A stretch of 64,000 nucleotides of DNA, taken from contig CAWHWX010000012.1 of the NCBI GenBank assembly GCA_963833125.1, positions 1-64,000 on the forward strand, in the 5' to 3' direction. Shown one piece after another: positions 8,843 to 33,968 of the stretch. Position numbers and translations under genes: made by a program. How positions within the stretch are numbered: position 1 is the stretch's first letter; the number at the start of each line of letters is the position of its first letter. The stretch comes from Candidatus Bathyarchaeota archaeon (lineage in GTDB: Archaea > Thermoproteota > Bathyarchaeia > 40CM-2-53-6). The notes below the pieces were generated by a model that saw only the letters and a list, made by a program, of their open reading frames with translations, searched no databases and was not told the origin of the DNA.

Positions 8843-8961
8843 GGGCCGGTAGTTCAGCCTGGTATACCTAATCTAAGAAAGGGCCGAAGAACGTCCGGTT
8901 TGCAAGCCACCATGGCCTAAGGTCCGGAAGGTCGCGGGTCCAAATCCCGCCCGGTCCACCA
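8843..8961 (+). tRNA. tRNA-Ala(TGC) with two BHB introns (21/22: 8866..8888; 37/38: 8905..8922), CCA encoded
   Basis: Acceptor GGGCCGG/CCGGTCC with G3:U70 Ala identity, D stem GTTC/GAAC, anticodon stem TCCGG/CCGGA with TGC at 8901-8903, T arm GCGGG-TCCAAAT-CCCGC. Both inserts fold as relaxed BHB motifs. Confidence 0.92.
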
Positions 8962-19005: not shown

Positions 19006-19239
19006 TGGAGGTCTTTCGTTTTGTGGAGTAGTTTTCAGTACCAATGCATGCAGCAGAAGAACAAAAGGTTACATAGTTCGCGCAGATTTTCCAGAATCCG
19101 TAGCCCGGTGGTGTAGTGGACAGTTTACCCACAGAAGCATAGAGGGCTTTGGACCCTCCGACGGGAGTTCGAAAGGCACTGAGTTGCCCGAAATTCTCCC
19201 CCGGGCTACCAAACATCACTTCGACTACTTGCTCTGATC

Positions 19240-23990: not shown

Positions 23991-24165
23991 GGGGCGGTGG
24001 TCCAGACCGCGAGTCAACCCCTCGTGGGGACAACTTGGTCTAAGATAGCGACCATAACGATTCGCCTTAAAACCGGTCTCGGGACCACAACTGAACGGCG
24101 GGAACACCGGTGATCGAGGGTTCAAAATGACTGAAAAAGTCATGACATTCCCTCCCGCCCCACCA
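23991..24165 (+). tRNA. tRNA-Pro(CGG) with four BHB introns (15/16: 24006..24033; 25/26: 24047..24071; 37/38: 24084..24104; 59/60: 24127..24148)
   Basis: The spliced product GGGGCGG TG GTCC AGCTTGGTCTA AGAT A CCGGT CTCGGGC ACCGG TGATC GAGGG TTCAAAT CCCTC CCGCCCC A CCA is a normal cloverleaf. TATA-like TTTAAC lies ~30 nt upstream. Confidence 0.9.
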
Positions 24166-31529: not shown

Positions 31530-31675
31530 TGGTAGCGGGGGGTGGATGTTCGGGCACTTCTGCGCCTTTCGAACCACCGCTTGAGGAGCCCTTAGGCTCA
31601 ATCTCAGGGTTTCTCGCCAGGATATGAGCCGTCCGCAATCGTTCTGCGGGTTAAACCTGGCTACCCCACCCCGCT
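31530..31675 (-). tRNA. initiator tRNA-Met(CAT) with four BHB introns (29/30: 31631..31643; 37/38: 31611..31622; 47/48: 31580..31600; 59/60: 31547..31567)
   Basis: Spliced product AGCGGGG TG GGGT AGCCAGGTTTA ACCC G CAGGG CTCATAA CCCTG AGATC GGTGG TTCGAAT CCACC CCCCGCT A CCA. A1:U72 and three G-C anticodon-stem pairs mark it as the initiator. Confidence 0.92.
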
Positions 31676-31759
31676 AGAGTTTCGTCGCTCAAGTTCGCTA
31701 CCAAGTCCATCAATAGATAAGGTTGTTTCCCGCCCTTCGAGCAAACCATTTTCGGTTAG

Positions 31760-32343: not shown

Positions 32344-32599
32344 ATGTTTCAATTGAACCCGTCGATAACCCATGTCATATATTGCGGTTCCGAGGCCTCC
32401 GATAGCGGCCACCTGTTATGTACCCGCACCATGCGCTATACCACAACCACCCGAAGTCTACTATCAACCGCCGCCTCAAGCAGCGGCATACCAGCCACCC
32501 CCACAAACCTACCTTTACCAGCCACCCCCGGTTGCATACAGTGTAGCGTCGCCTCCGCAGGTCTACTACTATCAACCGCCAATGGTCAAGGTCCAGTAA
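32344..32599 (+). CDS. small Pro/Tyr/Gln-rich repeat protein (start uncertain)
   Basis: Repeated YQPPP units in ORF 32372..32599. Confidence 0.45.
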
Positions 32600-32638
32600 G
32601 AACTGGACGAAACCGCGGCACGGTTTAGTTACCTGAAG

Positions 32639-33968
32639 TCAGGGTCTGTGCCAGGTCCCTATTGGCGTCTCCTTTCTCCACCTCCTCTTTTCAAACCCGT
32701 AACGAGTCAGGGGTTTTGTTAAATGCCTCTGCGCCTTCTTATCAGGAAGATATAGCCCAGGCCGAATGACTCTGGGTCTTCTAAGAAATTGTTTCGATTC
32801 ATGTGAATAGCTCAACTTGCATCTTACACACCTGAAGCCCTGAGTTTGGCCTACAGATTTCATGTGTTTCCCGCAAAGGGGACATCGGGGATTCTCAACC
32901 GCAATATCATTACCGAGCCGGCGGATGATGAGTTTCTCAAGGTTCACTGTGAGTGGATGTCTGACATCGTTCTTTTTGACTCCACCATAGACTGTGACCT
33001 GATCCCCGGGAACCAACCCCGCGACTACTTCCTTGAACTTCCCGGTTGGTTCGAAGGCTGCGCAGTGCACAATACTATTCTTGTGTTTGAGTTGGAAGAA
33101 GACGTGCCCTCCGGAGATTCGCGTGGGCCGTTCGAGTACCTCTACCACTTAGTATGACTGGTCGGTTCGGTTCTATGTGTTTGTTGAGTGCGCTGTTTGG
33201 AAAATGTGCGTCGGTGCCGTGATTCGTGCGGAATATCACCCATCGCTCGACGGGTTCTCGAATACGGATGAGCCTAAACGCTCTAACAACCGCCTCGGGG
33301 GTTTCCCCTCGTAAGCCTAGTAGTACAGGATCTGGTCCATGAGGTGTAACAAGAATCCTTCTATTACTGGAATCATAGTTGTTGAACGTTTCTGGCGTAG
33401 TCATCCGATCCATCCTCACTACCGAATCCCCATCAACAAGTCTTGGCTTGCCGCGGTTGTGAGGTTCTCTGTAAGCAATCAACTCGAAAGTATGGTCGCC
33501 GTTCAAGGTTTGTCCTAACGCTGATAGGGCGCCCACCAAACCGAGCGTATTACCATAACATACCGCTGAAGCCTTGGATTTCTTGATCGCCCGTACCGCC
33601 TTGTGCGACGAAACGATATCAGTCAAGGCTTCACGTGACAATTCTTTGATCGCAGGTGTAGGGTTGCCTCGGAGCAGTACAACCGCTGGGTCGGTACCTT
33701 CGTCCCCCAGCTGGCAATTTTCTTCCACTGTCCGAATTACCGTCTCCCGAACAAATTCGTAGGTGTCGTTTGGAACCTCGACTCTTAGAGCTACTGCTGC
33801 ATTTCCTCGGGTCTTGAATGGGATGTTAGGGTTTAGGCGTACGATGTTAGGATAGTCAGTGAACTGGATCCTTTGTTGAGAAAATCTGTCAACTAAGAGG
33901 GCTGCGATGTAGGTTGTGCAACCGCCTTTTGTGGAATCTGTGTCGTCGATTCCAATATGCAATTTCAC
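32639..33968 (-). CDS. tiaS: tRNA(Ile2) 2-agmatinylcytidine synthetase (frameshift near 33150)
   Basis: HIGIDDTDS, KTRGNAAV, PHGPDPVLLGLRG, TNHGTD, then GGHVFF, AFEPT, CPLCG, HLTKP. Confidence 0.92.

Follow-up and report, generated by a model that had tools for sequence, protein, structure and literature searches.

An initiator tRNA-Met gene divided by four short introns in a Bathyarchaeia archaeon from soil or peat

INTRODUCTION

Is a 146-nt locus that four intervening sequences cut into five exons the gene from which a Bathyarchaeia archaeon makes its initiator tRNA-Met, and how would those sequences be removed? The locus lies at 31675..31530 on the minus strand of the stretch of DNA analyzed here (hereafter the window), which comprises positions 1 to 64,000 of contig CAWHWX010000012.1 (GenBank assembly GCA_963833125.1) and also includes archaeal rRNA (16S and 23S) and RNase P RNA. 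Its extent was established by direct reading and by script. We describe the structure of the gene, its conservation, the splicing enzyme genes of the genome, and the absence of an intronless alternative from the material searched. Very probably, the locus serves a soil or peat archaeon as its functional initiator tRNA-Met gene and is expressed as a precursor of ~146 nt from which four short introns would be spliced by proteins.

RESULTS

Structure of the gene and its spliced product

An earlier note on this DNA had proposed introns of 13, 12, 21, and 21 nt at tRNA positions 29/30, 37/38, 47/48, and 59/60, and the same four were returned by direct reading, by script, and by a parser blind to the proposal. 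On the minus strand, exon 1 (32 nt; 31644..31675) spans tRNA positions 1-29, with three additional nucleotides in the D loop. It is followed by intron 1 (13 nt, 29/30; 31631..31643), exon 2 (8 nt, positions 30-37, with the anticodon CAT inside; 31623..31630), intron 2 (12 nt, at the canonical 37/38 site; 31611..31622), exon 3 (10 nt, positions 38-47; 31601..31610), intron 3 (21 nt, 47/48; 31580..31600), exon 4 (12 nt, positions 48-59; 31568..31579), intron 4 (21 nt, in the T loop at 59/60; 31547..31567), and exon 5 (17 nt; 31530..31546), which carries positions 60-73 and an encoded CCA (31532..31530). The internal exons of 8, 10, and 12 nt are those that had been claimed.

Computational excision of the four segments gave a product of 76 nt plus the encoded CCA, which ARAGORN read as tRNA-Met(CAT) with a complete cloverleaf; removal of the introns thus restored the cloverleaf. 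Archaeal initiator tRNAs are marked by a CAU anticodon, an A1:U72 pair, and three consecutive G:C pairs at 29-31/39-41. All three hallmarks are present in the spliced product that ARAGORN read (A1:T72 in the DNA, i.e., A1:U72, and G29-G31/C39-C41), bearing out the earlier reading of A1:U72 and GGG/CCC, and the product also has a standard T loop and A73. By these sequence hallmarks it is an archaeal initiator tRNA-Met, and its use by aIF2 is predicted.

Two other kinds of disrupted gene were considered and rejected. A split or permuted tRNA gene does not fit five exons that are collinear at one locus within 146 nt, and self-splicing group I or II introns do not fit inserts of only 12-21 nt without an Rfam match, as a ribozyme core takes up hundreds of nucleotides. 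A TATA-box-like element, TTATCTAT, is located 38-45 nt upstream of position 1 (31713..31720, minus strand). Boxes resembling it lie upstream of the initiator gene in several relatives, and it is a putative promoter of the gene.

Chance parsing and detection by standard tools

Since a cloverleaf can be carved from much random sequence by four freely placed deletions, a chance control was made. A de novo parser, to which the proposed structure was not supplied, was seeded with acceptor-stem pairs followed by N-CCA. It allowed up to five candidate introns of 11-80 nt, each with at least three of four central-helix pairs, and required D, anticodon, and T arms. Its top solution at the initiator locus was the same four introns, with a score of 41. 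The real genome gave 3197 candidate spans and 60 ARAGORN-validated parses; the reversed genome, used as the control, gave 2728 candidate spans and 13 validated parses, all with four or five "introns" and with scores of at most 32. Because the control maximum was 32, parses were trusted at scores of at least 34, and those below 34 (11 with five introns, two with four, one with three, and one with two) were dropped as chance carve-outs.

ARAGORN found no tRNA in the raw window, and the Rfam tRNA model at its gathering score did not report the initiator locus there. A genome-wide RF00005 search at E ≤ 1 returned 29 matches, none of them at this locus. Standard annotation will overlook such genes, and tRNA counts and genome quality scores for bins of this kind will be wrong.

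Bulge-helix-bulge motifs

Spliced alignment assigned the central helices of introns 1 to 4 (CCGC/GCGG, CTCA/CGAG with one A·C mismatch, TGAG/CTCA, and TTCG/CGAA) to classes H4, H3, H4, and H4, in agreement with the helices and the single mismatch given in the earlier note. Under the strict definition of the bulge-helix-bulge motif (hBHBh', hBH, or HBh'), two 3-nt bulges surround a 4-bp helix with a flanking helix of at least 2 bp, and introns 3 and 4 have this form. In intron 3, U42-G45 pair with CUCA of the intron (4/4 pairs), the inner helix has 5 bp, and the outer helix has 2 bp (C41-G49 and C40-G50); the motif takes over the 3' strand of the anticodon stem together with the first bases of the T stem. 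In intron 4, U54-G57 pair with CGAA of the intron (4/4 pairs), and the 3-nt bulges are flanked by a 5-bp inner helix and by the 5-bp T stem, which serves as the outer helix.

The motifs of the other two introns are weaker. Intron 1 has an H4 helix, formed by C24-C27 with GCGG (4/4 pairs), but its flanks are 1 bp each, compared with at least 2 bp in the strict definition. As previously stated, this intron splits the run of three G:C pairs, and its central helix uses the D-stem bases C24 and C25 plus G26 and C27; G30 falls in the bulge. Intron 2 belongs to a relaxed, bulge-helix-loop-like class, in which C32-C34 pair with GAG, the A·C mismatch leaves three of four central pairs, and the anticodon stem acts as the outer helix (2 bp in the precursor and 5 bp after removal of intron 1). 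Relaxed motifs are common by chance, according to the sections consulted of a preprint on Asgard archaea (10.64898/2026.10.13.758758). Taken by itself, the motif of intron 2 is weak evidence for an intron, and its probable intron status rests on orthologues that do not have it. The hexamer CCUGGC within intron 2 (31611-31622) is complementary to GCCAGG in the D loop (31656-31661), both on the minus strand. Folds of the single sequence and of the consensus both contain this pairing, which does not vary in 13 of 13 genes of the genus and shows no covariation.

The earlier note had also called splicing at this locus cloverleaf-independent. That description suits introns 1 and 3, where motif formation competes with the D and anticodon stems; introns 2 and 4 have the anticodon stem and the T stem as their outer helices.

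Orthologues and conservation

Orthologues were sampled by a DNA search, which matched 31 of 41 related genomes, and by an exon-1 scan of species-representative genomes, which gave 40 further stretches; identity of exon 1 across these 40 loci is by construction, as exon 1 was the search pattern. A search for the initiator gene at the level of the order found matches in 63 of 105 genomes. With a purpose-written spliced alignment, used for genes that have different intron sets, 61 loci were resolved into 43 distinct initiator genes, and exon mismatches were 0-1 throughout the aligned loci.

All four introns were found in 14 of the 43 distinct genes, whereas 10 had introns at 47/48 and 59/60 and two at 36/37 and 47/48. 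The remaining sets were 37/38 + 59/60 + 71/72 (seven genes), 29/30 + 47/48 + 59/60 (four genes), 37/38 + 47/48 + 59/60 (three genes), and 29/30 + 37/38 + 59/60 (two genes), and one gene was partial, cut by a contig end. Because the intron sets vary in this way, each intervening sequence is absent from some orthologue with otherwise the same exons. Genes of other genera have the same exons and occupy no more than two or three of the six insertion sites. At loci L030, L037, L040, L044, L046, L048, and L057, a 30-nt intron interrupts the acceptor stem at 71/72, and the gene of a sister genus (L097, genome G049) has an extra 23-nt intron in the D loop at 15/16. Since 15/16 adds to the other sites, the initiator gene of the order has six of them.

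Within the genus of the window, 14 of 22 genomes matched, 12 with the four-intron form and two with a three-intron form that lacks the 47/48 intron. Alignment of 13 genes of the genus showed that 79 of 79 exon columns were invariant, compared with 35 of 67 intron positions. The intron strands of the central helices were conserved: GCGG of intron 1 was invariant in 16 of 16 distinct intron sequences, CGAG of intron 2 was conserved, and CTCA and CGAA were conserved with rare G-U variants, while the loops drifted. Inner helices differed in sequence between families and kept their pairing. When introns were shuffled, none of 2000 shuffles reached the observed mean inner helix at 29/30, 47/48, 59/60, and 71/72, and one of 2000 did so at 37/38, counts that are not probabilities since the related sequences are non-independent. 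The mean inner helix was 5.6 bp at 47/48 and 3.0 bp at 59/60, compared with 0.6-0.7 bp in shuffled introns. Covariation within the genus was thin, with two pairs changed on both sides.

The initiator gene had no match at E ≤ 1e-6 in eight of the 22 genomes of the genus, one of them 96% complete. A covariance model of the four-intron gene, run on five of these unmatched genomes, detected other multi-intron tRNAs and not the initiator, and exon 1 with up to three mismatches was found in none of the five. In G016 (same genus, 96% complete, three contigs), neither the DNA search nor the exon-1 pattern (up to three mismatches) nor the covariance model detected the initiator gene. Synteny was followed through the flanking methyltransferase gene, which had a clear orthologue only in genome G003, without adjoining tRNA pieces.

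Copies of the initiator gene in the assembly

A blast search with the spliced sequence and a motif scan of the assembly detected two copies only, the one described here on contig C12 and another at C17:35138-35283, which has the same four-intron architecture and is 93% identical to the first. C17 is a 45-kb contig that is syntenic with C12:580-32600 at 72-95% identity and has a G+C content of 53%, compared with 50%; its initiator gene is inverted relative to the shared flanks. C17 is probably a co-binned relative, because the bin shows 7% contamination.

The remaining CAT tRNAs of the parsed set have G1:C72 and lack GGG/CCC. Among the 21 tRNA-model hits in G014, a relative with a 100% complete genome in three contigs, only two were 75 nt or shorter, and these were tRNAs for Arg and Asp. 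No intronless initiator was found in the present assembly or among the tRNA-model hits of G014. The check proposed in the earlier note, whether this is the only tRNAiMet gene, thus turned up no intronless gene in the material searched, but the assembly has two four-intron copies, of which that on C17 likely comes from the co-binned relative. The assembly is 87.8% complete with 7% contamination, and at that completeness an initiator gene elsewhere in the genome, in a part that was not assembled, is conceivable.

Splicing enzymes and predicted processing

The genome has two genes for proteins of the EndA fold. One, in the region of G000:C34:61341-61595, encodes a candidate alpha subunit of 185 aa whose nearest match is the A. 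pernix alpha chain (3p1z_B, E = 8e-40); its closest relatives are catalytic alpha chains, those of A. pernix, S. tokodaii, and P. aerophilum. The Tyr/His/Lys residues are kept, and the alignment places lysines at both positions equivalent to K44 and R46 in the crenarchaeal specificity loop, which in A. pernix is described as conferring cleavage of non-canonical and bulge-helix-loop sites (PMC3241643). The second protein, of 190 aa and encoded in the region of C14:18748-18987, is divergent, lacks the His, and gave weak matches to beta-subunit models, below cut-offs. A crenarchaeal-type alpha/beta EndA thus appears to be encoded, judged from an alpha-like and a beta-like protein and the aligned loop lysines, and assembly as alpha2beta2 is predicted. 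RtcB is present (E = 1.5e-172).

With these enzymes, each intron would be cut at its bulge-helix-bulge or relaxed motif by an alpha2beta2 EndA of the crenarchaeal type with the specificity loop, and the exons would be joined by RtcB. RNase P would trim the leader, and the CCA is already encoded. Introns 1, 3, and 4 would present their motifs together in the primary transcript, and intron 2, at 37/38, would wait for the anticodon stem, which would be freed once introns 1 and 3 are gone.

Folding of the precursor and order of splicing

In the minimum-energy fold that RNAfold predicted for the precursor, introns 1, 3, and 4 formed their central helices alongside the acceptor and T stems. The central helix of intron 2 was never placed in any of 15 splice states, and that of intron 3 was lost once introns 1 and 2 had both been removed. 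When the 14 distinct four-intron genes were folded as precursors, the helices of introns 1 to 4 had median probabilities of 0.21, 0.00, 0.81, and 0.84, the prediction for intron 1 being very uneven (0.01-0.97), and the median for intron 3 fell from 0.81 to 0.04 after removal of introns 1 and 2. Intron 2 needs G30, G31, and C39-C41, which are the bases engaged by the motifs of introns 1 and 3, and its motif cost +4.6 kcal/mol in the last intermediate. The only RNA run that contained part of the stretch had its coverage confined to 32392-32700.

In the folding model, introns 1, 3, and 4 would leave in any order and intron 2 last, because the anticodon stem is free only after introns 1 and 3 leave; this order has about an even chance of being correct. 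The ordered splicing proposed in the earlier note therefore finds some backing in predictions that suggest an order, but these are folding predictions, and the concept is an existing one: the tRNAscan-SE 2.0 paper already describes that sequential removal may be needed for neighboring introns in archaeal tRNAs (PMC8450103). A bolder proposal, which we think rather improbable, is that the four motifs are mutually exclusive and impose a fixed maturation program, in which the near-invariant intron 2 pairs with the D loop as a built-in chaperone or checkpoint and the supply of initiator tRNA is gated by EndA throughput. If this were true, intron 2 would hold the sole initiator tRNA back from folding as a cloverleaf until cutting at the other sites was complete.

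Other interrupted tRNA genes

A genome census at scores of at least 34 parsed 45 tRNA genes with 39 distinct mature sequences, the duplicates coming from the co-binned twin; the census is partial, as a gene could be parsed only if it had an encoded CCA, an acceptor stem free of introns, T8, A14, and GG in the D loop. In this parsed set, 44 of 45 genes were interrupted. One gene had no intron, eight had one, 18 had two, 10 had three, six had four, and two had five, for 108 introns and a mean of 2.4 per gene. The initiator gene is therefore not exceptional in its own genome, where tRNA-Pro genes have four introns and tRNA-Trp five. Introns of different tRNA genes were compared in a search for intron transposition and showed no similarity at E ≤ 1e-3.

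Further four-intron genes were those for tRNA-Pro(CGG), tRNA-Pro(GGG), and tRNA-Leu(CAG). The tRNA-Pro(CGG) gene lies in the window at 23991-24165 on the plus strand, with introns of 28, 25, 21, and 22 nt, and the same four sites were used in 19 of 19 loci of the genus, with 0-2 exon mismatches and variable intron lengths. In relatives, this gene is often found within a few kb of the initiator gene. The window also contains two-intron genes for tRNA-Ala(TGC) (8843-8961) and tRNA-Gln(TTG) (19102-19211), both on the plus strand.

The tRNA-Trp(CCA) gene has five introns and is located at G000:C19:73417-73649 on the minus strand, with a twin at C21:4858-5090; a five-intron "tRNA-Ala" on C21 was rejected as a mis-parse of this twin. 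Of 24 tRNA-Trp loci, 20 could be aligned, including the genome's own. Five introns were found in all 15 loci of the genus and in four of five loci from other families, the fifth having four. The tRNA-Trp gene of G016 is 94% identical to that of this genome. An intron of ~60 nt near the anticodon of tRNA-Trp is conserved like the exons across the order. The haloarchaeal tRNA-Trp intron holds a box C/D guide. The ~60-nt intron recalls that guide intron by analogy, and when the tRNA-Trp locus and the C17 initiator copy were scanned permissively against Rfam, a single spurious hit was returned.

Elsewhere in the window, TiaS (agmatidine synthetase) is encoded at 32639-33968 on the minus strand in two overlapping frames; 33968..33075 codes for the kinase and FLD domains, and 33148..32639 for the OB fold and zinc ribbon. 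The two frames could reflect a natural split, a frameshift, or an assembly error.

DISCUSSION

Alternative explanations

If the locus were a decaying pseudogene, the cell would have to take its working initiator from an ordinary gene in an unassembled part of the genome, and the limited completeness of the assembly (87.8%) and the failure of standard tRNA finders to see the locus leave some room for this. Decay is hard to reconcile with exons that stay invariant while introns drift and with the same architecture in 12 genomes of the genus from separate assemblies. Moreover, the 100% complete relative has no intronless initiator among its tRNA-model hits, and uninterrupted genes make up only one of 45 in the confidently parsed tRNA set. 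We consider a pseudogene highly improbable. That the interrupted gene is mimicked by an assembly or binning artifact is scarcely credible: the sequence does come from a metagenome bin that is 7% contaminated and includes a co-binned twin contig, but near-identical architecture recurs in dozens of independent assemblies, and the unspliced gene is covered by DNA contigs of three public runs.

The gene could also be real while one weak-motif insert, intron 1 or intron 2, is removed by an activity other than EndA or is kept in part of the tRNA pool. In keeping with this, intron 1 has flanks of 1 bp, intron 2 has only three of four central pairs and a helix that folding never predicted, and relaxed motifs are described as common by chance in the Asgard preprint, as far as its consulted sections go (10.64898/2026.10.13.758758). 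However, orthologues that lack intron 1 or intron 2 have a contiguous anticodon arm, so the mature product must lack both. The intron strands GCGG and CGAG are conserved, and the candidate alpha subunit has the loop that is described as allowing bulge-helix-loop cleavage in A. pernix (PMC3241643). Such a partial exception is quite unlikely, and the reading we prefer is a functional initiator gene from which EndA would excise all four introns.

Significance and comparison with known systems

The mechanism is already established; novelty lies in the lineage, in how many introns interrupt an initiator gene, and in the intron load across the order. The initiator gene exceeds the limit of three introns found in peer-reviewed summaries, such as the statement in the tRNAscan-SE 2.0 paper of up to three introns per archaeal tRNA gene (PMC8450103), and other tRNA genes of the genome have four and five. 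Four introns are no record, as tRNA-Pro also has four and tRNA-Trp five here and up to five are reported in Asgard archaea. Taken as a whole, this soil order has one of the heaviest tRNA intron loads observed so far, and a widespread non-thermophilic soil lineage thereby becomes a second, unrelated case of near-total tRNA gene interruption beside Asgard. Orthologues with two, three, or four of six sites are a natural experiment on intron gain and loss, and a 146-nt precursor with exons of 8-12 nt is a compact substrate for studying how EndA orders competing sites.

The literature search, as far as it reached, returned no report of tRNA introns in Bathyarchaeia; supplementary files, which lay outside it, may list four-intron genes. 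In the accessible sections of PMC7714728, Bathyarchaeota are named only in a footnote that defines the TACK superphylum, and the tRNA-intron passages of the earlier Asgard preprint (10.1101/2023.11.21.568159) concern Asgard genomes. Those passages give 92-95% of tRNA genes as interrupted in three Asgard genomes, and the 2026 preprint counts 2.0-2.4 intervening sequences for each gene in two families, with as many as five in a single gene (10.64898/2026.10.13.758758). In Atabeyarchaeia and Freyarchaeia, as here, most tRNA genes are interrupted and annotators overlook many of the introns (10.64898/2026.10.13.758758; 10.1101/2023.11.21.568159). The Asgard archaea, however, belong to a different phylum, and the initiator tRNA goes unmentioned in the consulted text of the 2026 preprint, supplementary tables aside.

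Thermoproteales such as Pyrobaculum calidifontis also have multi-intron tRNA genes, which are cut by an alpha2beta2 EndA with the crenarchaeal loop and may need sequential intron removal (PMC8450103; PMC3241643). In the parts of this literature consulted, their maximum is three introns per gene and their average at most 1.54, whereas here the initiator gene has four, tRNA-Trp five, and the parsed genes a mean of 2.4. The present lineage is, moreover, no hyperthermophile but belongs to Bathyarchaeia found in samples of soil or peat type. In the red alga Cyanidioschyzon merolae, several short non-canonical introns can likewise occupy one tRNA gene, but in a eukaryotic nucleus and with a different endonuclease, according to the sections consulted (PMC3728597). 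Thermofilum pendens, as described in the portion of PMC4090602 consulted, likewise makes its essential initiator tRNA-Met from a disrupted, EndA-dependent gene. That gene is circularly permuted, whereas the five exons described here are collinear at one locus.
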